Part shown: positions 22,648 through 57,232 of the stretch, one piece after another
Numbering within the stretch: the first letter of the stretch is position 1
How the letters are laid out: each line of letters starts with the position of its first letter
Assembly (NCBI RefSeq): GCF_053078305.1
Contig: NZ_CP166879.1
DNA: 64,000 bases
Direction: 5' to 3' (one strand)
Translations under genes and position numbers: made by a program
The notes under the pieces: model-generated
The model's input: only the letters and a program-made list of their open reading frames with translations
Told to the model about the DNA's origin: nothing
The model's database searches: none

Positions 22648-22765
22648 ATTATCGAATACCCGGCGGCCACGTTCTGCCGGGCTCTTCGTCCGTATACAGA
22701 CTTGTTTCAACTGACCGGGAGGATTAAAACCAGACCACTTATTTGCCACGGAAAGGTTCCCTCCC

Positions 22766-23512
22766 ATGCATTATGCCGTTGTTGTCATGCTTGAACTGCT
22801 TTGCTGTATTCACGCTTACCGTACCGGACAAGAGCGGTACTGGATTTTTATCATTTTCTGTTTTCCGGTGATTGGCTGCGTGGCGTATTTCGTCATAGTG
22901 ATGCTGCCTGAAACGGGCGCTGACCGTCACGGGCATACTTTGCTGATGCGCCTGCAGAACAAACTCAACCCTGAGCGCCACCTGCGCAAATTAACCGAAG
23001 AACTGGCGATTGCCGAGACGAATCAAAACCATTATGCGTTGGCTAATGAACTGGCGCGTCTGGGGCGTTATCACGAAGCTGTTCCCCATTATCAGCAGGC
23101 GTTAAGCGGGATATTCGCCCATGAAGCGGCAATGATGCTAAGCCTGGCGCAGGCACAGTTTGCTATTCAGGAGTTCGCCGCCTGTCAGCAGACGCTGGAA
23201 GATGTGATGCGTTATAACCCTGATTTTCAGTCGGCAGACGGGCATTTGTTATTTGCCAGAACGTTAGCCGCACAAGAAAAATACGCTGATGCGGAAAGCG
23301 AGTTTGAAGTATTGATTTCTTATTACCCCGGCCCGCAGGCGCGTATTTACTATGCGGAAATGTTGGCGAAAATGAGTCGGTTACGTGAAGCCAACGAGCA
23401 GTATGTTGCTGTAGTTGATACGGCTAAACGCTCAAGACCTCATTATAGAAAACACCACCGGGAATGGATTAAGACCGCCAATGAACGGCTGAAGCAGAGT
23501 GTGGTGCAATGA
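22766..23512 (+). CDS. Hypothetical membrane-anchored protein: PLD-nuclease N-terminal-like two-helix anchor plus a TPR-like helical-repeat domain; accessory relative to K-12
   Basis: 248-aa ORF with its own RBS (GGAAAGG) and a downstream hairpin terminator. The N-terminus (CCIHAYRTGQERYWIFIIFCFPVIGCVAYFVIVMLPE) looks like a PLDc_N-type small membrane domain; the remainder is helical and alanine/leucine-rich. Confidence 0.6.
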   Translation: MHYAVVVMLELLCCIHAYRTGQERYWIFIIFCFPVIGCVAYFVIVMLPETGADRHGHTLLMRLQNKLNPERHLRKLTEELAIAETNQNHYALANELARLGRYHEAVPHYQQALSGIFAHEAAMMLSLAQAQFAIQEFAACQQTLEDVMRYNPDFQSADGHLLFARTLAAQEKYADAESEFEVLISYYPGPQARIYYAEMLAKMSRLREANEQYVAVVDTAKRSRPHYRKHHREWIKTANERLKQSVVQ

Positions 23513-23582
23513 AAATCTTCTTTGCCGTTAGACCAGTGTCGCGGCAATCTTTTGTTAAAATTGAAAAATGTAGCTCTCATCG

Positions 23583-23620
23583 GGCAGCAAAACTGGACGC
23601 AGAATTTGCTGCCATTTTTG
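23583..23620 (+). terminator. Hairpin terminator after the 22766-23512 gene
   Basis: GGCAGCAAA, loop, TTTGCTGCC, then ATTTTTG. Confidence 0.6.
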
Positions 23621-23871
23621 CTCTTCATGGTAAGGAGTTCTGGCGATTAGCTGGCCGTTAATCGCCTCTTTTCAGTGCATTCTCGGGATATCCGTGCCCC
23701 ATCTCCCATTTTCCCTCACCCGTACCGTCACCGCCTTGTCATCTTTCTGACACCTTACTATCTTACAAATGTAACAAAAAAGTTATTTTTCTGTAATTCG
23801 AGCATGTCATGTTACCCCGCGAGCATAAAACGCGTGAATTCGCGCATTCGGTACAACAAGAGAGATAAACG

Positions 23872-25188
23872 ATGAAACCGTTACATTATACAGCTTCAGC
23901 ACTGGCGCTCGGACTGGCGTTAATGGGGAATGCACAGGCAGTGACGACCATTCCGTTCTGGCATTCTATGGAAGGGGAACTGGGTAAAGAGGTGGATTCT
24001 CTGGCCCAACGTTTTAACGCCGAAAACCCGGATTACAAAATTGTACCGACCTATAAAGGCAACTACGAACAGAATTTAAGCGCGGGGATTGCCGCATTTC
24101 GTACCGGCAATGCTCCGGCTATTTTGCAGGTTTATGAAGTTGGCACCGCCACCATGATGGCGTCGAAAGCCATTAAACCGGTATATGACGTGTTTAAAGA
24201 GGCGGGGATTCAATTCGATGAGTCGCAGTTTGTGCCGACGGTTTCAGGTTACTATTCCGACAGCAAAACCGGCCACTTACTCTCCCAGCCGTTCAACAGC
24301 TCGACTCCCGTTCTCTATTACAACAAAGACGCCTTCAAGAAAGCGGGGTTAGACCCGGAACAACCGCCGAAAACCTGGCAGGATCTGGCGGACTATGCCG
24401 CAAAACTAAAAGCCTCCGGCATGAAGTGCGGCTACGCCAGCGGCTGGCAGGGCTGGATCCAACTGGAAAACTTTAGCGCCTGGAACGGTCTGCCGTTTGC
24501 CAGCAAAAACAACGGCTTTGACGGCACGGATGCGGTGCTGGAGTTCAACAAGCCGGAGCAGGTGAAACACATCGCCATGCTCGAAGAGATGAACAAGAAG
24601 GGCGATTTCAGCTACGTCGGGCGTAAGGATGAATCCACCGAGAAGTTCTATAACGGTGATTGCGCGATGACCACCGCCTCTTCCGGTTCTCTCGCTAATA
24701 TTCGTGAGTACGCCAAATTTAACTATGGCGTAGGCATGATGCCTTACGACGCCGATGCGAAAGATGCACCGCAAAACGCCATTATCGGCGGGGCCAGCCT
24801 GTGGGTGATGCAGGGCAAAGATAAAGAAACGTATACCGGCGTGGCGAAGTTCCTCGACTTCCTCGCTAAGCCAGAAAATGCTGCCGAGTGGCATCAGAAA
24901 ACTGGTTATCTGCCAATCACCAAAGCGGCGTATGACTTGACTCGTGAGCAGGGCTTTTATGAGAAAAACCCAGGGGCGGATACCGCGACGCGTCAGATGC
25001 TGAATAAGCCGCCGTTGCCGTTCACCAAAGGGCTGCGTCTGGGCAACATGCCGCAGATCCGCGTGATTGTGGATGAAGAGCTCGAGAGCGTGTGGACCGG
25101 CAAGAAGACGCCACAGCAGGCGCTGGATACCGCCGTTGAGCGTGGGAATCAGTTGCTGCGCCGTTTTGAGAAATCTACGAAGTCTTAA
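23872..25188 (+). CDS. ugpB: sn-Glycerol-3-phosphate periplasmic binding protein
   Basis: 438 aa with signal peptide. The upstream region carries pho-box-like TGTCAT repeats (CTTGTCATCTTTCTGACACC). Confidence 0.96.
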
Positions 25189-25194
25189 TCAGTG

Positions 25195-25270
25195 TAATGT
25201 CGGATGCGTTTCGCTTATCTGACCTGGCATCGCGTGTAGGCCGGATAAGCGAAGCGCATCCGGCACAGTT
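25195..25270. repeat. REP palindromic units between ugpB and ugpA
   Basis: ATGTCGGATGCGTTTCGCTTATCTGACC... and inverted TAGGCCGGATAAGCGAAGCGCATCCGGCA. Confidence 0.8.
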
Positions 25271-25285
25271 CAGGAATTAACCGTA

Positions 25286-26173
25286 ATGTCATCATCCCGT
25301 CCGGTGTTCCGCTCGCGCTGGCTGCCTTATCTGCTGGTCGCGCCGCAGCTCATCATCACCGTTATCTTTTTTATCTGGCCTGCGGGCGAAGCGTTGTGGT
25401 ACTCGCTGCAAAGCGTCGATCCGTTTGGTTTCTCCAGCCAGTTTGTCGGCCTGGATAACTTCGTCGCGCTGTTTCATGACAGCTACTATATCGACTCCTT
25501 CTGGACGACGATAAAATTCAGCACCTTTGTCACCGTCAGCGGTTTGCTGGTATCGCTGTTCTTTGCGGCGCTGGTGGAGTACATCGTGCGCGGCAGTCGT
25601 TTCTATCAAACCTTGATGCTGCTGCCGTATGCCGTGGCTCCCGCCGTTGCCGCCGTATTGTGGATATTTTTGTTTAACCCCGGTCGCGGGCTGATCACTC
25701 ATTTTCTCGCCGAGTTCGGCTACGACTGGAACCACGCGCAAAACAGCGGTCAGGCGATGTTTCTGGTGGTGTTTGCCTCGGTGTGGAAGCAAATCAGCTA
25801 CAACTTTCTGTTCTTCTATGCCGCGCTGCAATCCATTCCCCGTTCGTTGATTGAAGCCGCAGCCATTGATGGCGCAGGCCCGATTCGCCGCTTCTTTAAG
25901 ATTGCGCTACCGCTTATCGCTCCGGTGAGTTTCTTCCTGCTGGTAGTGAACCTGGTGTATGCCTTCTTCGACACCTTCCCGGTGATCGACGCCGCCACGT
26001 CCGGTGGGCCGGTGCAGGCCACCACGACGCTGATTTATAAGATCTACCGTGAAGGCTTTACCGGACTGGATCTGGCTTCGTCTGCCGCACAGTCGGTGGT
26101 GTTGATGTTCCTCGTCATCGTGCTGACGGTGGTGCAGTTCCGCTATGTTGAAAGCAAGGTGCGTTACCAATGA
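25286..26173 (+). CDS. ugpA: G3P ABC permease
   Basis: 295-aa membrane protein; operon position. Confidence 0.95.
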
Positions 26174-27015
26174 TTGAGAACCGTCCGTGGCTGACGATAT
26201 TCAGCCATACCATGCTGATCCTCGGGATCGCGGTGATCCTATTCCCGCTGTACGTGGCGTTTGTCGCGGCGACGCTGGATAAACAGGCCGTCTACGCCGC
26301 GCCGATGACGCTCATCCCCGGCACGCATCTGCTGGAAAACATCCACAACATCTGGGTAAACGGGGTAGGCACAAATAGTGCGCCGTTCTGGCGGATGTTG
26401 CTTAACAGCTTCGTGATGGCGTTCAGCATTACGCTCGGCAAAATTACCGTCTCGATGCTCTCGGCATTCGCCATTGTCTGGTTTCGTTTTCCGCTGCGTA
26501 ACCTCTTTTTCTGGATGATTTTTATCACCCTGATGTTGCCGGTTGAAGTACGTATCTTCCCGACGGTGGAAGTCATCGCCAACCTGAAGATGCTCGACAG
26601 CTACGCAGGTTTAACGCTGCCGCTGATGGCCTCGGCGACCGCGACGTTTCTTTTCCGCCAGTTCTTTATGACCCTACCGGATGAACTGGTGGAAGCCGCG
26701 CGGATCGACGGCGCATCGCCAATGCGCTTCTTTTGCGACATCGTTTTTCCGTTGTCCAAAACTAATCTGGCGGCGTTGTTTGTGATCACCTTTATTTACG
26801 GCTGGAACCAGTATTTGTGGCCGTTGTTGATTATTACCGACGTGGATCTCGGCACCACCGTGGCAGGGATCAAAGGGATGATCGCCACTGGCGAAGGCAC
26901 CACAGAATGGAACTCAGTGATGGCGGCGATGTTGTTAACCCTGATCCCACCAGTAGTGATTGTTTTAGTGATGCAGCGTGCCTTCGTGCGCGGCCTGGTC
27001 GATAGTGAGAAATAA
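26170..27015 (+). CDS. ugpE: G3P ABC permease
   Basis: 281-aa membrane protein; 4-bp overlap with ugpA. Confidence 0.95.
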
Positions 27016-27016
27016 G

Positions 27017-28087
27017 ATGGCAGGACTGAAATTACAGGCAGTAACCAAAAGCTGGGATGGCAAAACCCAGGTGATTAAACCGCTGACCCTTGATGTGGCG
27101 GATGGCGAATTTATCGTGATGGTCGGGCCGTCAGGCTGCGGGAAATCGACGCTGCTGCGCATGGTTGCCGGGCTGGAGCGGGTGACGGAAGGCGATATCT
27201 GGATCAACGACCAGCGGGTGACCGAAATGGAGCCGAAAGATCGCGGGATTGCGATGGTGTTCCAGAACTACGCGCTTTATCCGCATATGAGTGTTGAAGA
27301 AAACATGGCGTGGGGGCTGAAAATTCGCGGCATGGGCAAGCAGCAAATTGCCGAGCGCGTTAAAGAGGCGGCGCGCATTCTGGAACTGGACGGTCTGCTT
27401 AAGCGCCGCCCGCGCGAGCTTTCCGGCGGTCAGCGTCAGCGTGTGGCGATGGGCCGCGCGATTGTGCGCGATCCGGCGGTGTTCCTGTTTGATGAGCCAC
27501 TCTCTAACCTCGATGCCAAGCTGCGCGTACAGATGCGTCTTGAACTGCAACAGCTGCACCGTCGCCTGAAAACGACATCACTCTACGTTACTCACGATCA
27601 GGTTGAGGCGATGACCCTCGCCCAGCGAGTAATGGTGATGAACGGCGGCGTTGCCGAACAGATTGGCACACCAGTAGAAGTCTACGAAAAGCCCGCCAGC
27701 CTGTTTGTGGCGAGTTTTATTGGCAGCCCGGCGATGAATCTGCTGACAGGCCGCGTGAATAACGAAGGCACGCATTTCGAACTGGACGGCGGTATTGTGC
27801 TAACGCTAAACGGTGGCTACCGTCAGTATGCCGGGCGTAAAATGACTCTCGGCATTCGCCCGGAACATATTGCGCTAAGCTCGCAGGCAGAAGGTGGCGT
27901 TCCGCTGGTGATGGATACGCTGGAGATCCTCGGCGCAGATAACCTGGCGCACGGACGCTGGGGCGAACAGAAGCTGGTGGTGCGACTGGCGCATCAGGAG
28001 CGCCCGACGGCAGGCAGCACGCTGTGGCTGCATCTGGCGGAAAATCAGCTGCATCTTTTTGATGGTGAAACAGGACAACGAGTATGA
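27017..28087 (+). CDS. ugpC: G3P ABC ATPase
   Basis: Trimmed to [15 protein letters not shown] giving 356 aa. Walker [10 protein letters not shown], signature LSGGQRQR. Confidence 0.93.
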
Positions 28088-28827
28088 GTAACTGGCCTTA
28101 TCCCCGCATCGTCGCACATCGTGGCGGCGGTAAGCTGGCCCCGGAAAACACCCTGGCAGCAATCGATGTGGGAGCAAAATACGGTCATAAGATGATCGAA
28201 TTTGACGCGAAGTTGTCGAAAGATGGCGAAATCTTCCTGCTCCATGACGACAATCTCGAACGTACCAGCAACGGCTGGGGCGTCGCGGGTGAACTGAACT
28301 GGCAGGATTTACTACGTGTGGATGCAGGCAGTTGGTACGGCAAAGCGTTTAAAGGTGAGCCGCTGCCGTTGCTTTCGCAGGTGGCGGAACGCTGTCGCGA
28401 ACATGGGATGATGGCGAATATCGAAATCAAACCCACCACTGGCACCGGGCCATTAACGGGCAAAATGGTGGCGCTGGCGGCACGCGAACTGTGGGCCGGT
28501 ATGACGCCGCCGCTACTGTCATCGTTTGAGATTGATGCTTTAGAAGCCGCACAACAGGCAGTACCAGAACTGCCGCGCGGTTTGTTGCTGGATGAGTGGC
28601 GCGACGACTGGCGAGAACTGACCGCGCGGCTGGGCTGCGTCTCTATTCATCTCAATTATAAATTGCTTGATAAAGCACGAGTGATGCAGTTGAAAGACGC
28701 CGGATTACGGATTCTGGTTTATACCGTCAATAAACCCCAGCGCGCGGCAGAGTTGCTGCGCTGGGGCGTGGATTGCATCTGTACCGATGCGATTGATGTG
28801 ATTGGTCCGAACTTTACGGCCCAATAG
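28084..28827 (+). CDS. ugpQ: Glycerophosphodiester phosphodiesterase
   Basis: 247 aa with the GDPD-family HRGG motif ([15 protein letters not shown]). Confidence 0.95.
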
Positions 28828-29254
28828 TTTTCAACGGTATATCAGGCTGCGGCGTGCCGGGCTGATTCAGCATGTCGCCGTTTCTCCTCTCCGGCAACAT
28901 ATGCTGCTGATTCAACGAACTATCCGGATTACGGTTGCTGTTTAACATCCCGCCATTGGTGTTGGGCAGCATTTGCTGCCGGGCGGGATTTCGCTCCCCC
29001 GGCTGTGACTGCAACACCCGCTGAGAATTATTGTTTATCTGGTTTTCTAAATGCTGTTGTTGCAACTGAGTTTGCGTTTTCAGTTGCTGATTCAGCATCC
29101 CTTTTTGCTGGATTTGCTGCGTTTGCATCTGGGTTTGCATCCGCTGCTGACTGGGGATCTGATACCCCGGCTGGTTAGGGTTGTTCAGAGTATTAATGGG
29201 CTGTGCAAAGCCGACAAACGGCAGGAGTGCCGTAAGAATCAGAAGTCGTTTCAT
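28814..29254 (-). CDS. yhhA: Secreted Q/N-rich low-complexity protein
   Basis: 146 aa with a signal peptide then a Gln/Asn-rich repeat region; convergent with and overlapping the ugpQ 3' end. Confidence 0.85.
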
Positions 29255-29373
29255 CGCGTATCCTCCTCTGAAGATATTCTTTAAGTTTACTCCTTTCCTG
29301 CAATCATCAGGATTAATTCAGAGTTATATACCAGGCTTAGCTGGGGTTGCCCCTTAATCTCTGGAGAATAACG

Positions 29374-31119
29374 ATGATAAAACCGACGTTTTTACGCCGG
29401 GTGGCCATTGCTACTCTGTTCACAGGAAGTTGTTTTAGTACGGTAGCCGCGCCACCTGCGCCGTCTCCTGTTTCTTACGGCGTGGAGGAAGATGTCTTTC
29501 ATCCGGTACGCGCGAAACAGGGGATGGTGGCATCTGTAGATGCTACTGCCACTCAGGTGGGGGTGGATATCCTCAAGGAGGGCGGGAATGCCGTTGATGC
29601 CGCCGTGGCGGTGGGCTACGCGCTGGCGGTAACGCATCCGCAGGCGGGGAATCTGGGCGGCGGTGGTTTTATGTTAATCCGCTCGAAAAATGGCAATACC
29701 ACCGCTATCGATTTCCGCGAAATGGCACCCGCCAAAGCGACCCGCGATATGTTCCTTGATGATCAGGGTAACCCGGACAGCAAAAAATCACTCACTTCGC
29801 ATCTGGCTTCCGGCACGCCCGGTACGGTCGCTGGTTTCTCGCTGGCGTTGGATAAATACGGCACAATGCCGTTGAACAAAGTGGTGCAGCCAGCGTTTAA
29901 ACTGGCACGCGATGGTTTTATCGTTAACGACGCGCTGGCTGACGATCTCAAAACCTACGGGAGCGAAGTGCTGCCGAATCACGAAAACAGCAAGGCTATC
30001 TTCTGGAAAGAGGGCGAGCCGCTGAAAAAGGGCGACAAGCTGGTGCAGGCGAACCTGGCAAAGAGCCTGGAGATGATTGCCGAAAACGGCCCGGACGAAT
30101 TCTACAAAGGCACGATAGCGGAACAGATTGCCCATGAGATGCAGAAAAACGGTGGCCTGATCACTAAAGAAGATTTAGCGGCGTATAAAGCGGTCGAACG
30201 CACACCGATAAGCGGCGATTATCGCGGGTATCAGGTTTACTCCATGCCACCGCCATCCTCCGGTGGGATTCATATCGTGCAGATCCTCAATATTCTGGAA
30301 AACTTCGATATGAAGAAATACGGCTTTGGCAGTGCCGATGCGATGCAAATCATGGCAGAGGCTGAGAAATACGCCTACGCCGACCGCTCGGAATATCTTG
30401 GCGACCCGGATTTTGTGAAAGTCCCGTGGCAGGCGCTGACCAATAAAGCCTATGCCAAATCTATTGCCGAGCAAATCGATATCAATAAAGCGAAACCGTC
30501 CAGCGAGATTCGCCCTGGCAAGCTTGCGCCTTATGAGAGTAATCAAACTACCCATTACTCAGTGGTGGATAAAGACGGTAACGCCGTGGCGGTGACCTAT
30601 ACGCTGAACACCACCTTCGGTACGGGTATTGTCGCGGGCGAGAGCGGTATTTTGCTCAATAACCAAATGGATGATTTCTCTGCCAAACCGGGCGTACCGA
30701 ACGTTTACGGGCTGGTGGGCGGTGATGCCAACGCCGTCGGGCCGAACAAACGCCCGCTGTCGTCGATGTCGCCGACTATTGTGGTGAAAGACGGTAAAAC
30801 CTGGCTGGTCACCGGTAGCCCTGGCGGGAGCCGGATCATCACTACAGTGCTTCAAATGGTGGTGAATAGCATCGATTATGGCATGAACGTCGCCGAAGCG
30901 ACCAATGCGCCGCGTTTCCACCATCAATGGTTGCCGGACGAGCTGCGTGTCGAAAAAGGATTTAGCCCGGATACGCTCAAGCTGCTGGAAGCAAAAGGTC
31001 AGAAAGTGGCGCTGAAAGAGGCGATGGGCAGTACACAAAGCATTATGGTTGGGCCGGACGGTGAGTTGTACGGCGCATCCGACCCGCGCTCGGTGGATGA
31101 TTTAACTGCGGGGTATTAA
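29374..31119 (+). CDS. ggt: Gamma-glutamyltranspeptidase
   Basis: Trimmed to MIKPTFLRRVAIA giving 580 aa. Autoprocessing Thr in the TTHYSVVD context. Confidence 0.96.
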   Translation: MIKPTFLRRVAIATLFTGSCFSTVAAPPAPSPVSYGVEEDVFHPVRAKQGMVASVDATATQVGVDILKEGGNAVDAAVAVGYALAVTHPQAGNLGGGGFMLIRSKNGNTTAIDFREMAPAKATRDMFLDDQGNPDSKKSLTSHLASGTPGTVAGFSLALDKYGTMPLNKVVQPAFKLARDGFIVNDALADDLKTYGSEVLPNHENSKAIFWKEGEPLKKGDKLVQANLAKSLEMIAENGPDEFYKGTIAEQIAHEMQKNGGLITKEDLAAYKAVERTPISGDYRGYQVYSMPPPSSGGIHIVQILNILENFDMKKYGFGSADAMQIMAEAEKYAYADRSEYLGDPDFVKVPWQALTNKAYAKSIAEQIDINKAKPSSEIRPGKLAPYESNQTTHYSVVDKDGNAVAVTYTLNTTFGTGIVAGESGILLNNQMDDFSAKPGVPNVYGLVGGDANAVGPNKRPLSSMSPTIVVKDGKTWLVTGSPGGSRIITTVLQMVVNSIDYGMNVAEATNAPRFHHQWLPDELRVEKGFSPDTLKLLEAKGQKVALKEAMGSTQSIMVGPDGELYGASDPRSVDDLTAGY

Positions 31120-31127
31120 GGTTAGCG

Positions 31128-31156
31128 GCCCTCTTCGTGGGAAGAGGGCTATTTTG
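31128..31156. terminator. Bidirectional hairpin terminator between convergent ggt and yrhB
   Basis: GCCCTCTTC, loop GTGG, GAAGAGGGC, flanked by T/A runs. Confidence 0.75.
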
Positions 31157-31441
31157 TCAGGGCAAGCCGAAGGCAGCTTTTTTTATTTCGTAATCCTGTA
31201 GATATTCTTCCAGCGGCTTTGCCGTTCCCAGAGAATGAATTTCACCACTGTCTTTATCAATAATAAAAGGTGCGTTACCAGCTAAGCGCGCGGCCTCATC
31301 TCCAGTTTCGAGAAATTCTCGTGCTTCGAAACAGAAATACCAGCCCTGGCTAAAGCGTCCATGTAGAGTAATGACGACCGGGAGATCTGCATCATCAAGG
31401 TAATGGTTCGCTTTCGCGAATGCGTCGTGATAAGTAATCAT
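31157..31441 (-). CDS. yrhB: Small protein YrhB
   Basis: 94-aa ORF in the conserved position next to ggt. Confidence 0.8.
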   Translation of the reverse strand: MITYHDAFAKANHYLDDADLPVVITLHGRFSQGWYFCFEAREFLETGDEAARLAGNAPFIIDKDSGEIHSLGTAKPLEEYLQDYEIKKAAFGLP

Positions 31442-31890
31442 AATTATAATAAATATTATTGTTGAGTGTTATATTATTGTTCCTGTGTGATACATTGAGC
31501 AAAGGCGCGTTCATCTTCGTCAAAGATATTATTAAATGCTGGTTTTGAAAAAAGTTCATCGGATAAGATATAGTCACGAAATAAGTATCTGCTAATATTT
31601 TGTGATTTCTTTTTCAGAACGTCGAACGGAATTTTCTTATTTAAGATATCAGAATCTTATGATTCGGGTAAAATTCTAAATAAATCAACATGTCACTAAA
31701 ATCATCATAGCCATTAGCTATTTCGGCTAAAATAGAGACTACATGTCTTCGGTCCATCTCACTTAAGGAGTGTAGTTCCGTTGTAAGTTTTTCCATAGCT
31801 TGCATTGCTAAATTTCGAACAAGGAATTTTCTGGTGGTAATCTCTAAAAAGATGGCATGGTTTACAATGATTTTTGTTTCCTTTTGATTA

Positions 31891-32385
31891 TTATGAACAA
31901 CTGTCCATGATTTCGTTTAAGAATGAAGAGAAATCACTAAACGAACTGAATATATTTTCTGTGCCAATATTATCTCTAATTTCAAAAAAGTTACTTTTAA
32001 TGTCATAAGTAAATATTGAAATGCTATCATCCCCGATCACTAACCGTTCTTGTAGATCAGGGTTTATGAAATCATCATTATTTCTATAAAATTCATTTAC
32101 GGCAAAAAGGTTTTTAACTGAAGGTTCTGGAATCGAGAGGCTAAATAATCGTAATCCATTAACTTCGAATCCATCCATTGCTCTTAAAAAAGTAAGATAA
32201 TCAGGTTGATTCTTAAAAAGAATACTAACTTCATTACATAACTTCTCCAGGCAATTAGTTGAATTAGAATTAAATTCTATTTGGATTATACTTTCAATAA
32301 ATGATTCCTTGAGCGGTGCTTCAAATGGATAGTCTAAATCATTCATCATTTTTATTAATTTGTTTATTTGGGTTTTAGTCATCAT
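31891..32385 (-). CDS. yrhA: Putative immunity protein for the upstream Hcp-HNH toxin (intact yrhA-like gene)
   Basis: 164-aa acidic protein whose start sits in an ATGATGA overlap with the yhhZ stop, indicating translational coupling. AT-rich. Calling it the intact counterpart of the K-12 yrhA pseudogene is from memory. Confidence 0.65.
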   Translation of the reverse strand: MMTKTQINKLIKMMNDLDYPFEAPLKESFIESIIQIEFNSNSTNCLEKLCNEVSILFKNQPDYLTFLRAMDGFEVNGLRLFSLSIPEPSVKNLFAVNEFYRNNDDFINPDLQERLVIGDDSISIFTYDIKSNFFEIRDNIGTENIFSSFSDFSSFLNEIMDSCS

Positions 32386-33560
32386 TTTGTGGGTTCCATA
32401 ATATTTTTCATGGGAGGATAAATTGAGCCAGATGGAATGGCCCAGGGAGTGATTTTGCTTTCACCTACTAATATTCCCTTAGCTATTCGTGATTGCATGT
32501 TAGTAAAAACTTTATGATATGGTTCGTTTTCGATTAATACTAAATTTTCGAAATCATTAGTACCACCATCATCTAGAGATAGTTTATGGTGAACATTATA
32601 ATTTAGAGGAACATAGCCCTTTCTCATTCTTAAAAGGTCTTCGGTGTTGAATCTTCCAGATGCTTCGGAGGTTTTTGCAAGTTTGATAAGAAAATTTTTT
32701 CTTACAGTTTTGTTAAACTCCTTTCGTAAGTTAGCTAAGTCTTTTGAAGGTCTCTTAATGTATATTATTTCTATTATGTCTATGCCATCAAGAAGTTTTT
32801 GTTGACCTCTAAGTTTGCCTAAGTAACTATTTATTTCTGTATATGTATCAACTTTAGAACGCTTTGTTAAAAGAATAGATGCTGTTGCTATCGCTATGCC
32901 CGCTGTTTTTTCATTTAGTATTTGATCATAGCCTTTGATTGCATCTCCACCCAGTTTTTCCGCAGTATCTCTGAAACCTTCAATGTTCCCATTGTATACG
33001 CCACCAGCAGCAAGTAGCCTGCCAACAGCTTTGCTGTTTAACGTTTTGAAACGATTATTTGTTTGGTTTTTTGAATTTGGTAAAAACAAACGGTTATAAT
33101 TTTCAGGGAGTGCCAAATAGCTGAACTCGGTATTTGCGATAAGATGTTGACAGAGGATAAATTCATAACTAACAGTTATTGTTTCTGTATCCAGTTGATT
33201 TTCAATGATCTGATGATGAATAGCCGATAAAAAAGCGCCTCTTAGTTGTATATAATAATACTTTTCCCATCTGCCAAATCTATTGATTCTATAAAAGTCA
33301 AATTCCATAAATAATTGCTCATTATTGTTAATGGAATTAATAAGTAATGGAGTGCTTTTATCAATTAATTTACAAAATGTTATACCCTGTAACTGTGAAC
33401 CAAGCCCCGTATTAGTAATGCTATTTGCGAGTGAGAATGTAAATATTTCATTCTCATGCCCGCTCTGCCAGCGATTACCTATAGATTCAGTAGTCCCACA
33501 ACCTGCGGAGATGCTTCCTTGTTGTTCTCCCGTTACTGTCAGGTAAACAATATTACTCAT
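32382..33560 (-). CDS. yhhZ: Orphan T6SS Hcp-family protein with a C-terminal HNH-type nuclease toxin domain (Hcp-ET type)
   Basis: 392 aa. The N-terminal roughly 130 aa resemble Hcp. The C-terminus carries an HNH signature (NYNVHHKLSLDDGGTNDFENLVLIENEPYHKVF). AT-rich composition. Confidence 0.8.
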   Translation of the reverse strand: MSNIVYLTVTGEQQGSISAGCGTTESIGNRWQSGHENEIFTFSLANSITNTGLGSQLQGITFCKLIDKSTPLLINSINNNEQLFMEFDFYRINRFGRWEKYYYIQLRGAFLSAIHHQIIENQLDTETITVSYEFILCQHLIANTEFSYLALPENYNRLFLPNSKNQTNNRFKTLNSKAVGRLLAAGGVYNGNIEGFRDTAEKLGGDAIKGYDQILNEKTAGIAIATASILLTKRSKVDTYTEINSYLGKLRGQQKLLDGIDIIEIIYIKRPSKDLANLRKEFNKTVRKNFLIKLAKTSEASGRFNTEDLLRMRKGYVPLNYNVHHKLSLDDGGTNDFENLVLIENEPYHKVFTNMQSRIAKGILVGESKITPWAIPSGSIYPPMKNIMEPTK

Positions 33561-33796
33561 CCCTGAAAAGTCCTTTTATGGCATGCTATTTTATCAATGG
33601 CACTATTATGCTTGTTAATTGTTATTTATTTACTCCAGGAAATTGTAGGCGTATATATTAAAAAATAAAATATTACACTTTAGGAAGTAATTATGAGGTA
33701 AATCTCAATATATTTATTGGGAAAATAAATATATTAAAGGAAGGTATGCCGATTTTGAATGACACCCTTTTTCCATATCAGAAAAAGGGCACTATA

Positions 33797-34285
33797 TTAC
33801 TTCACCCGCGCCATATAATACGCATCGACATATTCACCATTACGTAATGCGTACTTCTTACCAGTCCCTTCAATTTCAAAGCCGTATTTTTTATAGACCT
33901 TAATTGCTGGCGCGTTATCGACGAACACCGTTAGCTCGATACGAGCTACCCGCAACCAGTTGTCGCACATTTCAATCATCTCTCGCATAAGGGCGCTGGC
34001 GACGCCGCGATTCTTCCAACGGGAGTCGACACAAATACCAAAATCGGCAACATGACTGCGGCGTGGGCGCTGTTGCACGTCAATGGTGAGGTGACCCACG
34101 ACGGTTCCATCAATACAGGCAACTAACTGTTTGATGCCGGGACGATCGGCGAGTCGCTCCTGCCACATATGATCGGAAGGATGAGGCACCTGTAGTGTGT
34201 TGCAATACACCTCCGGCTGGGCGTGAATCTGCCTGATGGCCTCGTAATCGCGCGTTTCAGCATGGCGTATCACTATCTCACTCAT
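33797..34285 (-). CDS. yhhY: GNAT-family N-acetyltransferase
   Basis: Trimmed to MSEIVIRHAETRDYEAIRQIH... giving 162 aa. Acetyl-CoA-binding motif RWKNRGVASALM. Confidence 0.88.
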   Translation of the reverse strand: MSEIVIRHAETRDYEAIRQIHAQPEVYCNTLQVPHPSDHMWQERLADRPGIKQLVACIDGTVVGHLTIDVQQRPRRSHVADFGICVDSRWKNRGVASALMREMIEMCDNWLRVARIELTVFVDNAPAIKVYKKYGFEIEGTGKKYALRNGEYVDAYYMARVK

Positions 34286-34381
34286 TCCTTTGTCCTCTTT
34301 GGGGTAAATGTCCCTTTCAACATCATTGACTTTCGAATGCGAGTCAAATGCATTTTTTTTGCAAAAAGTGTTGGACAAGTG

Positions 34382-34404
34382 CGAATGAGAATGATTATTA
34401 TTGT
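34382..34404 (+). promoter_or_regulatory. Fur box overlapping the ryhB promoter
   Basis: GAATGAGAATGATTATTATTGTC, matching the Fur consensus (GATAATGATAATCATTATC-like), immediately upstream of the ryhB start. Confidence 0.8.
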
Positions 34405-34407
34405 CTC

Positions 34408-34497
34408 GCGATCAGGAAGACCCTCGCGGAGAACCTGAAAGCACGACATTGCTCACATTGCTTCCAGTATTACTTAGCCAGCCGGGTGCTGGCTTTT
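34408..34497 (+). ncRNA. ryhB: Iron-responsive small RNA RyhB
   Basis: GCGATCAGGAAGACCCTCGCGGAGAACCTGAAAGCACGACATTGCTCACATTGCTTCCAGTATTACTTAGCCAGCCGGGTGCTGGCTTTT matches the RyhB sequence as I recall it, ending in its intrinsic terminator hairpin plus U-run. Located between yhhY and yhhX as in K-12. Confidence 0.92.
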
Positions 34498-34619
34498 TTT
34501 TTGATCTTTCGTTCTCAATTTATCCTCGGGAAGTGCTTGTGTTCGTTATGCGCACTCCAGTAGGAACCACGTCCGCTTTGCGCTAAGGTGTAAATAACCA
34601 CCTTAAAAAGGACGAAATC

Positions 34620-35657
34620 ATGGTCATCAACTGCGCCTTTATTGGCTTCGGCAAAAGCACCACCCGTTACCATCTGCCGTATGTACTTAACCGCAAGGAT
34701 AGCTGGCATGTCGCGCATATTTTTCGTCGCCATGCGAAGCCGGAAGAACAGGCTCCCATTTACTCTCATATCCATTTCACCAGCGATCTCGACGAAGTGC
34801 TAAACGATCCCGATGTTAAGCTGGTTGTGGTCTGCACCCACGCGGACAGCCATTTCGAGTACGCGAAACGCGCGCTGGAAGCCGGGAAAAATGTGCTGGT
34901 CGAAAAACCGTTCACTCCGACACTTGCGCAGGCGAAAGAGCTGTTTGCACTGGCGAAAAGCAAAGGGCTGACCGTCACGCCATATCAGAATCGTCGCTTT
35001 GATTCCTGCTTCCTGACAGCGAAAAAAGCGATTGAAAGCGGCAAGCTGGGAGAGATTGTCGAAGTGGAAAGCCATTTTGACTATTACCGCCCGGTCGCAG
35101 AAACCAAACCTGGGTTGCCGCAGGATGGCGCGTTCTATGGCCTTGGTGTGCATACGATGGACCAGATTATTTCTCTGTTCGGTCGCCCGGATCACGTCGC
35201 TTATGACATCCGCAGCCTGCGTAATAAAGCCAATCCTGACGATACTTTCGAAGCGCAACTGTTTTATGGCGATCTAAAAGCCATCGTCAAAACCAGCCAT
35301 CTGGTGAAAATCGATTATCCGAAATTTATCGTTCACGGTAAGAAAGGTTCGTTTATTAAATACGGTATCGACCAGCAGGAAACCAGCCTGAAGGCTAATA
35401 TTATGCCGGGCGAACCGGGATTCGCAGCGGATGATTCGGTCGGTGTGCTGGAGTATGTCAATGACGAGGGCGTGACGGTCAGAGAAGAGATGAAGCCGGA
35501 GATGGGCGATTACGGGCGCGTTTATGATGCGTTGTATCAAACCATCACCCACGGTGCGCCAAATTACGTCAAGGAATCTGAAGTTCTTACCAATCTGGAA
35601 ATCCTTGAACGCGGATTTGAGCAAGCCTCTCCCTCCACCGTGACTCTCGCGAAGTAA
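34620..35657 (+). CDS. yhhX: Gfo/Idh/MocA-family NAD(P)-dependent oxidoreductase
   Basis: 345 aa with N-terminal Rossmann motif (INCAFIGFGKSTTRYHLP). Confidence 0.9.
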   Translation: MVINCAFIGFGKSTTRYHLPYVLNRKDSWHVAHIFRRHAKPEEQAPIYSHIHFTSDLDEVLNDPDVKLVVVCTHADSHFEYAKRALEAGKNVLVEKPFTPTLAQAKELFALAKSKGLTVTPYQNRRFDSCFLTAKKAIESGKLGEIVEVESHFDYYRPVAETKPGLPQDGAFYGLGVHTMDQIISLFGRPDHVAYDIRSLRNKANPDDTFEAQLFYGDLKAIVKTSHLVKIDYPKFIVHGKKGSFIKYGIDQQETSLKANIMPGEPGFAADDSVGVLEYVNDEGVTVREEMKPEMGDYGRVYDALYQTITHGAPNYVKESEVLTNLEILERGFEQASPSTVTLAK

Positions 35658-35779
35658 GTTTGATGGCCCCTCAAATAGTTCAATTTTTTTGAACAGAGGG
35701 GTCAATTTTCACCCTCTATCATCCCAGGCAGATCGGGTCCACACTAAGCCCATCGAAATCATTCAGGGGGCGAATACAA

Positions 35780-36475
35780 ATGATCTACTTACGCAAAGCA
35801 AATGAACGTGGTCATGCAAATCATGGCTGGCTGGACTCCTGGCATACTTTCTCTTTTGCCAACTATTACGATCCGAACTTTATGGGCTTCTCCGCGCTGC
35901 GCGTGATTAACGACGACGTGATTGAAGCAGGGCAGGGCTTCGGCACTCACCCGCATAAAGATATGGAAATTTTGACCTACGTGCTGGAAGGTACTGTTGA
36001 GCACCAGGACAGCATGGGCAATAAAGAGCAGGTTCCGGCGGGTGAGTTCCAGATTATGAGTGCGGGTACGGGTATTCGTCACTCAGAGTACAACCCAAGC
36101 AGCACCGAGCGTCTGCATCTGTATCAGATCTGGATCATGCCTGAAGAAAACGGTATTACGCCGCGTTATGAACAGCGTCGCTTCGATGCAGTGCAGGGCA
36201 AACAACTGGTGCTTTCGCCAGATGCGCGTGATGGTTCATTGAAAGTGCATCAGGATATGGAACTGTACCGCTGGGCGTTGCTGAAAGATGAGCAGTCGGT
36301 GCATCAGATTGCCGCTGAACGCCGCGTCTGGATCCAGGTGGTGAAAGGCAATGTCACCATTAACGGCGTGAAAGCCTCGATCAGCGATGGTCTGGCAATC
36401 TGGGATGAGCAGGCAATCTCCATCCATGCGGATAGCGACAGCGAAGTGTTACTGTTCGATCTGCCGCCGGTTTAA
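35780..36475 (+). CDS. yhhW: Pirin-like cupin (quercetin 2,3-dioxygenase-like)
   Basis: 231 aa with cupin metal-binding His residues (GFGTHPHKDMEILTYVLEG, HSEYN). Confidence 0.9.
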   Translation: MIYLRKANERGHANHGWLDSWHTFSFANYYDPNFMGFSALRVINDDVIEAGQGFGTHPHKDMEILTYVLEGTVEHQDSMGNKEQVPAGEFQIMSAGTGIRHSEYNPSSTERLHLYQIWIMPEENGITPRYEQRRFDAVQGKQLVLSPDARDGSLKVHQDMELYRWALLKDEQSVHQIAAERRVWIQVVKGNVTINGVKASISDGLAIWDEQAISIHADSDSEVLLFDLPPV

Positions 36476-36698
36476 AACTCAACGGCATCTTTGAAGCCTG
36501 CCTTTTTGCAGGCTTCCTCGCTCGCTCCGGTCGCGTGCTGATGTACGCTTCCGGGGTTTTGCCGCGTCGTTAGCACAATGCGATGCAATTGATTTAGTGT
36601 ATATCTAATAATTGTAAACAAGCACTGTTTTCCCCGGGAAGGTTCTGATGCGTCCGTGTTAAACTAAGAGAATCTATCTCTTTTGTACCTTCAGGACG

Positions 36699-37694
36699 AT
36701 GAAAAAGAAAAGACCCGTACTTCAGGATGTGGCTGACCGTGTAGGCGTGACCAAAATGACGGTCAGCCGTTTTTTACGCAACCCGGAGCAGGTTTCCGTC
36801 GCTCTACGCGGCAAGATTGCCGCGGCTCTTGATGAACTGGGCTATATTCCCAATCGTGCGCCCGATATCCTCTCTAACGCCACCAGCCGGGCGATTGGCG
36901 TCCTGTTACCTTCTCTCACCAACCAGGTTTTCGCGGAAGTATTACGCGGAATCGAAAGCGTCACCGACGCGCACGGTTATCAGACCATGCTGGCCCACTA
37001 CGGTTATAAACCGGAAATGGAGCAAGAACGTCTCGAATCAATGCTCTCATGGAATATCGACGGACTTATCCTCACCGAACGTACCCACACGCCGCGCACC
37101 TTAAAGATGATTGAAGTGGCGGGGATTCCCGTGGTGGAACTGATGGACAGCAAGTCGCCATGCCTCGATATTGCCGTCGGTTTTGATAACTTTGAAGCGG
37201 CACGCCAGATGACCGCCGCCATTATTGCTCGCGGGCATCGCCATATTGCCTATCTCGGCGCACGTCTCGACGAACGTACTATCATCAAACAGAAGGGATA
37301 CGAACAGGCGATGCGGGATGCAGGCCTGGTGCCGTATAGCGTGATGGTTGAGCAATCTTCTTCTTACTCTTCCGGTATTGAACTGATTCGCCAGGCGCGG
37401 CGGGAATATCCGCAGCTGGATGGCGTGTTCTGTACTAATGATGATCTGGCGGTCGGCGCGGCGTTTGAATGTCAGCGTCTGGGGTTAAAAGTTCCTGACG
37501 ATATGGCGATTGCCGGTTTCCACGGTCATGACATTGGTCAGGTGATGGAGCCACGACTTGCGAGCGTGCTGACGCCGCGTGAGCGGATGGGCAGTATTGG
37601 CGCTGAACGCCTTCTGGCGCGTATTCGTGGCGAATCTGTGACACCGAAAATGTTAGATTTAGGTTTCACCTTGTCACCGGGCGGATCTATTTAA
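36699..37694 (+). CDS. gntR: LacI-family gluconate repressor
   Basis: 331 aa with N-terminal HTH (LQDVADRVGVTKMTVSRFL) and a periplasmic-binding-fold effector domain. Confidence 0.95.
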   Translation: MKKKRPVLQDVADRVGVTKMTVSRFLRNPEQVSVALRGKIAAALDELGYIPNRAPDILSNATSRAIGVLLPSLTNQVFAEVLRGIESVTDAHGYQTMLAHYGYKPEMEQERLESMLSWNIDGLILTERTHTPRTLKMIEVAGIPVVELMDSKSPCLDIAVGFDNFEAARQMTAAIIARGHRHIAYLGARLDERTIIKQKGYEQAMRDAGLVPYSVMVEQSSSYSSGIELIRQARREYPQLDGVFCTNDDLAVGAAFECQRLGLKVPDDMAIAGFHGHDIGQVMEPRLASVLTPRERMGSIGAERLLARIRGESVTPKMLDLGFTLSPGGSI

Positions 37695-37832
37695 GCCCAC
37701 AAATTTGAAGTAGCTCACACTTATACACTTAAGGCACGGATGGATATTGCTTCTGATATTGTCCGGCCGGAGAATGTTACCGATAACAGTTACCCGTAAC
37801 ATTTTTAATTCTTGTATTGTGGGGGCACCACT

Positions 37833-38360
37833 TTGAGCACGACTAACCATGATCACCACATTTACGTCTTGATGGGCGTATCGGGCAGCGGCAAATCTGC
37901 GGTCGCAAGTGAAGTGGCGCATCAACTTCATGCCGCGTTTCTTGATGGCGATTTCCTCCATCCACGGCGCAATATCGAAAAAATGGCGTCTGGCGAACCG
38001 CTGAATGACAACGATCGCAAACCGTGGTTGCAGGCGCTGAACGACGCCGCGTTTGCTATGCAGCGCACTAATAAAGTGTCGCTGATCGTCTGTTCTGCAT
38101 TGAAAAAACACTATCGCGACTTGCTGCGTGAAGGTAATCCGAATCTCTCTTTCATCTACCTGAAAGGCGATTTTGATGTGATTGAAAGCCGCCTGAAAGC
38201 GCGCAAAGGCCATTTCTTTAAAACCCAAATGTTGGTGACGCAGTTTGAAACGCTGCAGGAGCCGGGTGCGGACGAAACCGATGTACTGGTGGTGGATATC
38301 GATCAACCGCTGGAAGGTGTTGTGGCAAGCACCATTGAGGTTATTAAAAAAGGCAAATAA
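37833..38360 (+). CDS. gntK: Gluconokinase (thermoresistant)
   Basis: P-loop GVSGSGKS. Start set at TTG 37833 (LSTTNHDHH...) for 175 aa; the track's upstream ATG would add 7 residues. Confidence 0.85.
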   Translation: MSTTNHDHHIYVLMGVSGSGKSAVASEVAHQLHAAFLDGDFLHPRRNIEKMASGEPLNDNDRKPWLQALNDAAFAMQRTNKVSLIVCSALKKHYRDLLREGNPNLSFIYLKGDFDVIESRLKARKGHFFKTQMLVTQFETLQEPGADETDVLVVDIDQPLEGVVASTIEVIKKGK

Positions 38361-38363
38361 GTA

Positions 38364-39704
38364 GTGACTACATTAACGCTTGTTTTAACAGCAGTAGGGT
38401 CTGTTTTACTGCTGCTGTTTTTAGTCATGAAGGCGCGTATGCACGCTTTCCTGGCTTTAATGGTGGTGTCCATGGGGGCTGGCCTTTTTTCCGGTATGCC
38501 GCTCGATAAAATCGCAGCGACGATGGAAAAAGGGATGGGAGGCACCCTCGGCTTCCTGGCGGTGGTTGTCGCCCTGGGAGCTATGTTTGGCAAGATCTTA
38601 CATGAAACCGGCGCAGTCGATCAGATTGCCGTCAAAATGCTTAAATCCTTCGGTCACAGCCGCGCGCATTATGCCATCGGCCTTGCGGGGCTGGTCTGTG
38701 CGCTACCGCTGTTCTTTGAAGTGGCGATTGTTCTGCTGATTAGCGTTGCTTTCTCAATGGCGCGCCACACCGGTACGAACCTGGTGAAGCTGGTAATCCC
38801 ATTATTCGCAGGCGTGGCGGCAGCGGCGGCGTTCCTGGTGCCAGGGCCAGCGCCAATGCTGCTGGCATCGCAGATGAACGCCGATTTTGGCTGGATGATC
38901 CTGATTGGCCTGTGTGCGGCAATTCCGGGAATGATTATTGCCGGGCCGCTGTGGGGTAACTTCATCAGCCGTTACGTTGAGCTGCATATTCCTGACGACA
39001 TCAGCGAGCCGCATCTCGGCGAAGGCAAAATGCCGTCCTTCGGATTCAGCCTGTCGCTGATCCTGCTGCCGCTGGTGCTGGTGGGGCTGAAAACCATTGC
39101 CGCGCGTTTTGTGCCGGAAGGCTCTACCGCTTACGAATGGTTCGAGTTTATTGGTCATCCGTTTACCGCGATTCTGGTTGCTTGTCTGGTAGCGATTTAT
39201 GGCCTGGCAATGCGTCAGGGCATGCCAAAAGACAAAGTGATGGAGATTTGCGGTCACGCGCTGCAACCGGCGGGGATCATTCTGCTGGTGATTGGTGCGG
39301 GCGGCGTGTTCAAACAGGTGCTGGTTGACTCTGGCGTAGGTCCGGCACTGGGCGAAGCGTTAACCGGCATGGGCCTGCCGATTGCTATCACCTGCTTCGT
39401 GCTGGCAGCTGCAGTGCGCATCATTCAGGGGTCTGCCACCGTTGCCTGTTTAACGGCGGTGGGGCTGGTGATGCCGGTCATTGAACAACTGAACTACTCC
39501 GGTGCGCAAATGGCGGCGCTGTCGATTTGTATCGCCGGTGGTTCGATTGTTGTCAGCCACGTTAACGACGCCGGTTTCTGGTTGTTCGGTAAATTTACCG
39601 GCGCGACCGAAGCCGAAACGCTGAAAACCTGGACCATGATGGAAACCATCCTCGGCACTGTTGGTGCCATCGTTGGGATGATTGCGTTCCAGCTGTTGAG
39701 TTAA
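38364..39704 (+). CDS. gntU: Low-affinity gluconate:H+ symporter (GntP family)
   Basis: 446-aa polytopic membrane protein with a GTG start immediately after gntK. Confidence 0.93.
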   Translation: MTTLTLVLTAVGSVLLLLFLVMKARMHAFLALMVVSMGAGLFSGMPLDKIAATMEKGMGGTLGFLAVVVALGAMFGKILHETGAVDQIAVKMLKSFGHSRAHYAIGLAGLVCALPLFFEVAIVLLISVAFSMARHTGTNLVKLVIPLFAGVAAAAAFLVPGPAPMLLASQMNADFGWMILIGLCAAIPGMIIAGPLWGNFISRYVELHIPDDISEPHLGEGKMPSFGFSLSLILLPLVLVGLKTIAARFVPEGSTAYEWFEFIGHPFTAILVACLVAIYGLAMRQGMPKDKVMEICGHALQPAGIILLVIGAGGVFKQVLVDSGVGPALGEALTGMGLPIAITCFVLAAAVRIIQGSATVACLTAVGLVMPVIEQLNYSGAQMAALSICIAGGSIVVSHVNDAGFWLFGKFTGATEAETLKTWTMMETILGTVGAIVGMIAFQLLS

Positions 39705-39718
39705 TTACTGCGACAAAT

Positions 39719-39750
39719 TACTGCGAGCTTGCTCGCAGTAATTCATTTCT
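39719..39750 (+). terminator. Terminator after gntU
   Basis: Perfect palindrome ACTGCGAGCTTGCTCGCAGT followed by a T-rich tract. Confidence 0.7.
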
Positions 39751-39843
39751 CTTTTCTCCTCTCTTCATCTTTTTGATCTCTCTCGCAAATTTACCTGCAA
39801 ATAATCCGTTCTAATCACTGCCTAAAGATCGCAGGAGATAAAG

Positions 39844-41940
39844 ATGGAAAAGCACGCAGCTGAATTGCTTTTACAGCGGATGTTAGGAAATACCACCGCT
39901 ACTTTCAGGGAAGGGCAATGGGAAGCCATAGACGCGGTGGTGAACCAACGGCGAAAACTGCTGGTTGTCCAACGCACTGGCTGGGGGAAAAGTGCTGTGT
40001 ACTTCATCGCCAGTAAAATCTTCCGCGATCGCGGCGCTGGCCCGACAATTATCATCTCTCCTTTGCTTGCCCAGATGCGTAACCAGGTTGCCGCCGCTGA
40101 ACGGTTAGGTATTACGGCTGAAACGTTGAATTCTACAAACAGGGAAGAATGGCAGCGCATTAGCGATAAGTTGCTGCAAGGTGCGGTCGATTGCTTGCTG
40201 GTTTCCCCGGAACGTTTGGCAAACCAGGACTTTATCGAAACGGTTTTATATCCTATAGCCGATCGTATTGGCTTGCTTGTGGTCGACGAGGCGCACTGCA
40301 TCTCTGATTGGGGCCACGATTTTCGCCCGGATTACCGACGTATATTAGATATTTTGCGCCAACTACCTGCGAATACCCCTGTTCTGGGTACAACCGCGAC
40401 AGCGAATAACCGTGTCGTTGAGGATATCCGTCAGCAATTGGGTGACATTGTGATTCAGCGTGGAACGCTGGCTCGCGAAAGTTTGGCGCTTGATGCCTTA
40501 GTCTTAGGTGAACAGTCATCCCGTCTGGCATGGTTAGCAACGGTTATCCCTCAGTTTTCCAAATCGGGAATTGTTTATACCCTGACTACTCGCGATGCCG
40601 AACTTGTCGCCGAGTGGTTAAGGAAAAATGGTATCAGTGCATTTGCTTACTACAGCGGCGTGACTTGTGAAGGCGCGGAAGATTCTAATACTGCCAGGGA
40701 ATATCTGGAGCAGGCGTTGCTGGCAAATAAAATTAAAGTGCTGGTTGCGACAACGGCGCTGGGAATGGGCTTTGACAAACCGGATTTGGGGTTTGTTATT
40801 CATTACCAGATGCCAGGTTCGATAGTTGGTTACTACCAACAGGTGGGGCGTGCCGGTCGCGGTATCGATTCTGCTGTTGGCATACTGCTTTGCGGCAGTG
40901 AAGACCGTGCTATTCATAAATTCTTCCGTGAAAGCGCCTTTCCTGCGGAGGCGCAAATTCATGAATTACTCAACGTACTTAGCGTGAATGACGGTCTTAC
41001 CTTACGAGGCATTGAACAACGGACGAATCTCCGTTATGGGCAAATAGAAAAAGCACTGAAATTATTGGTAGCTGAAAATCCATCGCCTGTGGTGTATACC
41101 GAGAAATTATGGCGCAGAACAATTGTCAGTTTTTCTCCTGACCATGAACGAATTAACCATTTGATGAATCAGAGAAAAAGTGAGCTGGCAGACGTTGAAA
41201 GCTATATCACGACCAAGGAGTGCAAAATGCAATTTCTGCGCCGCGCACTCGATGAGCCAGGTGCCGAACATTGTGGTAAATGTAGCAGTTGTCTTCAGCA
41301 TCCGTTGTTGTCGCCCGACATTGATAGCGGCTTACTCCATGCGGCAAACTTATTTATTAAACACGCTGACCTGTCATTAAATCTCAATAAACAGGTGGCA
41401 GCTGGGGCTTTTACGCAATACGGATTTAAAGGGAACTTGCCTGCGATTTTACAAGGATCTACGGGGCGAATCCTTTCTCGTTGGGGAGATTCCGGGTGGG
41501 GAAAGCAGGTAGCACAGGAGAAAAAAACGGGGCGATTCAGTGATGAACTGGTGGAGGCATGTGCGGAAATGGTTCGCCAACGCTGGAATCCGCATCCTGA
41601 ACCAACCTGGGTATGCTGCGTTCCTTCATTACAGCACCTCGACCTGGTTCCTGATTTTGCCCGGCGACTGGCGGCGAAACTTGGCTTACCTTTTATTGAT
41701 GCCATTGAAAAAGTCGTGGACAATCCACCGCAGAAAATGCAGCAAAACCGTTTCCACCAGTGTCAAAATCTCGACGGGGCGTTTGTGATTACCCCTCCTT
41801 TGATGCCTGGTCCGGCGTTGCTGGTTGACGATATCGTGGATTCTGCATGGACGCTGACAGTTCTGACAGCACTGTTACGCCAGGCAGGTTGCCCGACGGT
41901 TTATCCTCTTGCCCTTGCTTCTACCTCGGTAAAAAATTGA
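39844..41940 (+). CDS. RecQ-like superfamily-2 DNA helicase fused to a C-terminal phosphoribosyltransferase (ComF/PRTase-like) domain; accessory relative to K-12
   Basis: 698 aa with RecQ-type motifs in order: FREGQWEAI (motif 0), TGWGKS (Walker A), DEAHCISDWGHDFRPDY (DEAH box), TATA (motif III), VATTALGMGFDKPD (motif V), QQVGRAGRG (motif VI), then a Cys cluster HCGKCSSC. C-terminal PRPP-binding-like motif ALLVDDIVDSAWT. Good SD (AGGAGATAAAG) before the ATG. Confidence 0.8.
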   Translation: MEKHAAELLLQRMLGNTTATFREGQWEAIDAVVNQRRKLLVVQRTGWGKSAVYFIASKIFRDRGAGPTIIISPLLAQMRNQVAAAERLGITAETLNSTNREEWQRISDKLLQGAVDCLLVSPERLANQDFIETVLYPIADRIGLLVVDEAHCISDWGHDFRPDYRRILDILRQLPANTPVLGTTATANNRVVEDIRQQLGDIVIQRGTLARESLALDALVLGEQSSRLAWLATVIPQFSKSGIVYTLTTRDAELVAEWLRKNGISAFAYYSGVTCEGAEDSNTAREYLEQALLANKIKVLVATTALGMGFDKPDLGFVIHYQMPGSIVGYYQQVGRAGRGIDSAVGILLCGSEDRAIHKFFRESAFPAEAQIHELLNVLSVNDGLTLRGIEQRTNLRYGQIEKALKLLVAENPSPVVYTEKLWRRTIVSFSPDHERINHLMNQRKSELADVESYITTKECKMQFLRRALDEPGAEHCGKCSSCLQHPLLSPDIDSGLLHAANLFIKHADLSLNLNKQVAAGAFTQYGFKGNLPAILQGSTGRILSRWGDSGWGKQVAQEKKTGRFSDELVEACAEMVRQRWNPHPEPTWVCCVPSLQHLDLVPDFARRLAAKLGLPFIDAIEKVVDNPPQKMQQNRFHQCQNLDGAFVITPPLMPGPALLVDDIVDSAWTLTVLTALLRQAGCPTVYPLALASTSVKN

Positions 41941-43142: not shown

Positions 43143-43187
43143 TAAAACAGGTGCCGCGTCTGGTTGTGTGCAGCACCTGTTTGAACC

Positions 43188-56351: not shown

Positions 56352-56453
56352 GCAGGATAATCATATGGATACCGGTATTATTCGCCTGAACGCGGCCAAT
56401 GCTCGTTTTGTTTATCAACCGTTTACACGCAATCAGCGGAAGAGGGAGTAATT

Positions 56454-57230: not shown

Positions 57231-57232
57231 AG

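Follow-up and report, generated by a model that had tools for sequence, protein, structure and literature searches.

In E. coli K-12, a copy of the insertion sequence IS1 lies in a small AT-rich gene module between ggt and yhhY, and the 64,000-nt stretch of DNA analysed here (hereafter the window; contig NZ_CP166879.1) carries the same module without it. This raises the questions of where exactly the K-12 element sits relative to the window, whether the window is free of insertion sequences, and which of the two arrangements came first. That yrhA of K-12 contains IS1E (b3443–b3445 in MG1655) is already known from the reference annotation and the literature (PMC12428005). In the MG1655 annotation the 768-bp element (3583428–3584195) stands between yrhA fragments 1 and 2, cutting the gene into pieces of 390 nt and 105 nt, and the 9-bp target duplication GACATTAAA borders it on both sides. 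In the window GACATTAAA occurs once at this site, unoccupied, at 31996–32004 within the minus-strand yrhA, where it covers codons 128–130 (Asp-Ile-Lys), and the two window-MG1655 alignment blocks that meet here (23689–32004 and 31996–39704) share exactly these 9 bp. An earlier note on this DNA had placed the K-12 IS1 between yrhB and the immunity gene, in the interval 31442–31890; its position needs to be corrected from that yrhB-yrhA spacer to yrhA itself, 106 bp from the end of the interval. When K-12 yrhA is rebuilt in silico by removing IS1E and one copy of the repeat, the result is an intact 164-codon open reading frame that differs from the window's yrhA by a single residue (Asp to Tyr), which argues that the insertion is recent and derived and that no further decay has followed it.

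The window almost certainly shows the never-occupied form of the site at which the K-12 lineage gained IS1E. The underlying event would have been a transposition of IS1 into yrhA after codon 130 in the K-12 lineage, with the 9-bp target GACATTAAA duplicated and the gene split; the window, with the target present once and yrhA intact, would preserve the state of the site before any such event.

The earlier note's statement that no transposase ORF and no insertion sequence inverted repeats occur in 31442–31890, or anywhere else in the window, is borne out, as neither IS1 DNA nor InsA or InsB, a transposase domain or insertion sequence-like ends were recovered. A blastn search of the whole window with MG1655 IS1E (word size 7) gave a best match of 19 nt (E = 0.49), and tblastn with InsA and InsB, looking for the insA and insB' frames, returned nothing with an E-value below 1. 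The hallmark structure of IS1, a 768-bp element with the terminal inverted repeats GGTGATGCTGCCAACTTACTGAT and their imperfect complement, was not found in the window, nor was a target-site duplication flanking an IS1, or the yrhA::IS1E junction that marks the K-12 lineage. For other insertion sequence families, three lines of evidence speak for their absence: the colinearity with MG1655, domain scans covering the segments that MG1655 lacks, and the annotation of the related strain D8. Five blocks of the window are colinear with MG1655 and differ in length from their K-12 counterparts by at most 15 bp, so that no insertion of insertion sequence size can hide in the shared 54 kb. No transposase domain was found by Pfam in the ORFs of the four remaining segments, and the PGAP annotation of D8 across the region includes no transposase and no mobile element.

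The flagged interval itself (31442–31890, assigned to no strand) is an ordinary AT-rich spacer between yrhB and yrhA, holding the tiny ORF yrhD and lying within a low-G+C module between ggt and yhhY. It aligns to MG1655 at 442 of 449 identical positions, with seven mismatches and no gaps. The earlier note's claim that this arrangement departs from that of MG1655 thus fails for the interval, where the two structures are the same, while it stands for the locus as a whole, from which IS1E is absent. The ORF list and an inverted-repeat search revealed no long ORF, no transposase ORF and no insertion sequence ends between 31442 and 31890; the inverted repeats there are weak and AT-rich, and the search of 31100–33800 likewise yielded nothing beyond weak AT-rich repeats. 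An Rfam scan of 29000–36000 left the interval empty and detected only the RyhB small RNA gene (34437–34501, plus strand; 83 bits against its model), which is flanked, as in K-12, by yhhY and yhhX. The ORF yrhD (31641–31796, minus strand) has 51 codons, is annotated under that name in MG1655 and D8, and by itself matches neither Pfam nor NCBIfam. After it, a different reading frame stays open for 57 codons, in the region 31442–31640.

One could ask whether the yrhD region is a remnant of a mobile element that has decayed beyond what our scans would recognize. The region is AT-rich, its frames are broken (yrhD and the 57-codon stretch), and in other strains, namely EcN_Sk and DETEC-P836, there is a stop inside yrhD; furthermore, it contains one weak 23-nt inverted repeat (31683–31705 and 31867–31889, 78% complementary). 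Such repeats are common in DNA of 31% G+C, however, with 17 pairs of similar quality in 2.7 kb. The protein evidence also speaks against a mobile element. A database variant (P0001) joins the yrhD frame to the downstream frame, and a conceptual fusion of both frames, searched against a collection of 5.8 billion proteins, brought up eight yrhD-like fragments, all from E. coli, and neither a more distant homologue nor a domain; the NCBIfam scan of the same query gave no match. Finally, the flanking genes are of the immunity type, which makes a decayed gene of an immunity or toxin module the simpler reading. We therefore consider a mobile-element origin very unlikely, and yrhD is probably what is left of a further, decaying toxin-immunity gene in this module rather than part of an insertion sequence. 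The stops and fusions in this region differ among strains and include a yrhA-yrhD fusion protein (P0005). Within the module, conservation against DETEC-P836, the most diverged genome compared, is lowest in the flagged interval (92.2% identity, versus 97.8% for yrhA).

The window as a whole is non-K-12 E. coli DNA, lying in reverse orientation relative to MG1655. Its blocks are 96.4–98.9% identical to MG1655 (about 97.8% when weighted) over 54 kb. Four segments, together 9.7 kb, have no MG1655 counterpart in the alignment. The genes used as phylogroup markers lie outside the window. The best-matching genomes belong to environmental and animal isolates (D8, 1504D004, ES5, A30 and A16). The closest complete genome is that of D8, which matches window positions 1–56336 without gaps at 99.5% identity, and the A16 assembly is 100% identical over 31100–33600. 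Several neighbouring genes in A16 (gntK, gntR, yhhX, ugpE, ugpA, livG, livM and livK) are annotated as frameshifted; these frameshifts are probably assembly errors and not biology.

To set the two forms of the site against their distribution, we surveyed 5,426 complete E. coli genomes. This part of yrhA is present in 3,777 of them, and in 3,411 of those 3,777 the IS1E site is uninterrupted; the K-12 yrhA/IS1 junction was found in 360 of the 5,426. Among the best 60 of these 360 genomes, the junction is present as a single piece in 59, while the 60th is a joined two-piece match, suggesting an IS1 at a different position. Most of the best 60 are named K-12 laboratory derivatives (including MG1655, C600, J53, DH5alpha, DH1, NCM3722 and RR1) or have K-12-like coordinates; as names were checked for these 60 of the 360, the insertion could also be present in a few natural isolates. 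Given the single target copy in the window and this distribution among genomes, uninterrupted yrhA is best read as the ancestral form, the one that most E. coli genomes normally have, and we infer that the direction of the event was an insertion in the K-12 lineage and not an excision in that of the window. The earlier note had likewise assigned the window to a non-K-12 lineage that keeps the ancestral, uninterrupted arrangement, and this agrees with the identity range of 96.4–98.9%, the four extra segments, the single 9-mer, and the ratio of 3,411 uninterrupted genomes to 360 with the junction. Of the five extra loci that it counted relative to MG1655, the alignment supports four (1–2445, 22648–23688, 39705–43187 and 55069–57758).

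The opposite direction would require that the window's lineage once carried IS1E in yrhA and lost it by precise excision, restoring the single 9-mer and an intact gene. Such an event would produce exactly the sequence seen at 31996–32004, and sequence alone cannot separate the two histories. Precise excision of IS1 is rare, however, and it would have to be reconciled with an uninterrupted site in 3,411 genomes and with a junction that, by name among the best 60 of 360, appears largely confined to K-12 laboratory derivatives. Moreover, given a divergence of about 2% from K-12 and four extra segments, the window is not of K-12 descent, and its closest genomes, D8 and A16, are also without IS1E at the 9-mer. 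Excision is thus, in our estimate, very unlikely, and insertion in the K-12 lineage remains the preferred reading. That the window derives from an engineered K-12 strain freed of insertion sequences, such as a reduced-genome strain, would explain the lack of IS1E, as such strains have none, but it can be dismissed as wholly implausible in view of an identity to MG1655 of just 96.4–98.9% across 54 kb, the 9.7 kb absent from MG1655, and the environmental and animal origin of the closest genomes (D8, 1504D004, ES5, A30 and A16).

The gene content of the four non-K-12 segments is as follows. The first (1–2445), with minus-strand ORFs at 546–1613 and 1673–2062, has coding sequence for a lipoprotein, for an O-methyltransferase and for a ketoacyl-synthase chain-length factor. 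It lies beyond yhhT and forms the edge of an island, where MG1655 has acpT after yhhT instead; in A16, genes for acyl carrier proteins and for an AMP-binding enzyme come next. The island thus resembles a lipid cluster of the polyketide or aryl-polyene type. The second (22648–23688; 1,041 bp), between livF and ugpB, holds a plus-strand ORF (22766–23512) for a TPR protein of 248 aa with a membrane anchor; D8 shares this gene, and at this spot MG1655 and A16 have an unrelated spacer of about 215 bp. The third (39705–43187; 3.5 kb), between gntU and yhgN, encodes on the plus strand a RecQ-like helicase and a DprA-like protein (ORFs 39844–41940 and 41847–43142), which PADLOC recognizes with its models for PsyrT (1066 bits) and PsyrA (669 bits), together the PsyrTA toxin-antitoxin pair of anti-phage defence. 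The fourth (55069–57758; 2.7 kb), between glgP and glpD, has three plus-strand ORFs (54834–56351, 56454–57230 and 57233–57823) encoding a PstS-like protein and two unknown proteins. The K-12 alignment blocks on either side of this segment overlap by 13 bp, which points to a deletion in K-12 with yzgL as its remnant. Its middle ORF (258 aa) has no Pfam match, D8 and A16 have a second PstS-family gene in its place, and window positions 56337–57186 align to neither of these two genomes.

What K-12 IS1E interrupts is a gene of a compact module that is much poorer in G+C (33.6% over 31157–33796) than the window (51.3%), with the flagged interval lower still (31.2%). Downstream of ggt (29347–31119, plus strand) and all on the minus strand, the module runs, in order of its reading, from yhhZ, a predicted Hcp-HNH toxin gene, through yrhA, its putative immunity gene, and yrhD to yrhB, an Imm35 gene. 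The yhhZ product (32382–33560, annotated tssD; 392 aa) has an N-terminal Hcp domain (48.7 bits against Pfam T6SS_HCP, cut-off 23.5, E = 1.1e-12; 123.7 bits against TIGR03344, cut-off 58.9) and a candidate C-terminal HNH-type region, the latter a weak match to Pfam HNH (17.2 bits) that falls under the 21.4-bit cut-off. YhhZ has been placed in a His-Me finger group (PMC5714182). We regard yhhZ, from its domain content, as a candidate orphan T6SS effector gene of the Hcp-ET1 type. The intact yrhA (31891–32385) encodes a 164-aa protein of the YrhA family (125.5 bits against NCBIfam NF038335, cut-off 55), with no other family matched, and the two genes overlap by 4 bp, at the start of yrhA and the stop of yhhZ. 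A putative role in immunity to the toxin encoded upstream is suggested by this position and by analogy with Hcp-ET1/ETI1. At the far end, yrhB (31157–31441; 94 aa), so annotated in MG1655, A16 and D8, encodes an orphan immunity-type protein that matches Pfam Imm35 (PF15567) over residues 5–83 with 81.8 bits (cut-off 27.5). PADLOC recognized none of yhhZ, yrhA and yrhB, so these three are not catalogued anti-phage defence genes. The module has been listed among the 'promoter islands' in some papers. We looked for an unusual density of promoter-like sites in it and rejected the idea, as 11 sites were counted against 12.6 +/- 3.7 in shuffled sequences.

The spot between ggt and yhhY is variable beyond the K-12 insertion. 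In the 5.45-Mb genome of the cattle isolate 'strain 134' a DUF4225 protein replaces the whole module, and EC195 retains yrhB alone. IS1 has also been at work there in other strains: WEM25 has two copies, one at another position in yrhA and one in yhhZ; 2017.15.01CC has one close to the 5' end of yhhZ; and in NT1F10 an IS1 stands where yrhA and yhhZ would be. The AT-rich module has thus been struck by IS1 several times independently, the K-12 copy being one instance. IS1 prefers AT-rich targets, and repeated hits on this module fit that preference. It is conceivable, though we would lean slightly against it, that yhhZ-yrhA is a recurrent IS1 target and that insertion of IS1, or deletion by it, is the main route by which this effector pair is inactivated or lost in E. 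coli; K-12 IS1E would then be one of several independent hits and the window the still-intact, possibly functional state.

Three comparisons with known systems place the window's locus. In Hcp-ET1, described from STEC and EAEC, Hcp is joined to an HNH DNase and the downstream ETI1 gives immunity (Ma et al., 2017, as recounted in PMC6730261 and bioRxiv 10.1101/2024.03.05.583533). The yhhZ-yrhA pair shares with it the N-terminal Hcp domain, a C-terminal region that is possibly HNH-like, and the presence of a small gene directly downstream (here with a 4-bp overlap); the likeness is one of architecture, the HNH match of YhhZ falling below the Pfam cut-off and the window holding no T6SS cluster. 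The IS1 insertions of WEM25, 2017.15.01CC and NT1F10 fall in the same AT-rich yhhZ-yrhA module as that of K-12, whereas the positions they occupy (a second yrhA site, two yhhZ sites, and the replacement of both genes) are all free of IS1 in the window. The absence of IS1E from non-K-12 strains is, in turn, the expected ancestral state and ordinary biology, and the practical value of the yrhA::IS1E site is that of a strain-lineage marker, by which the window is not K-12. The window and the yrhA::IS1E locus of MG1655 have ggt, yrhB, yrhD, yrhA, yhhZ, yhhY and the target GACATTAAA in common; where the window has one copy of that target and no IS1, MG1655 has the 768-bp IS1E between two.
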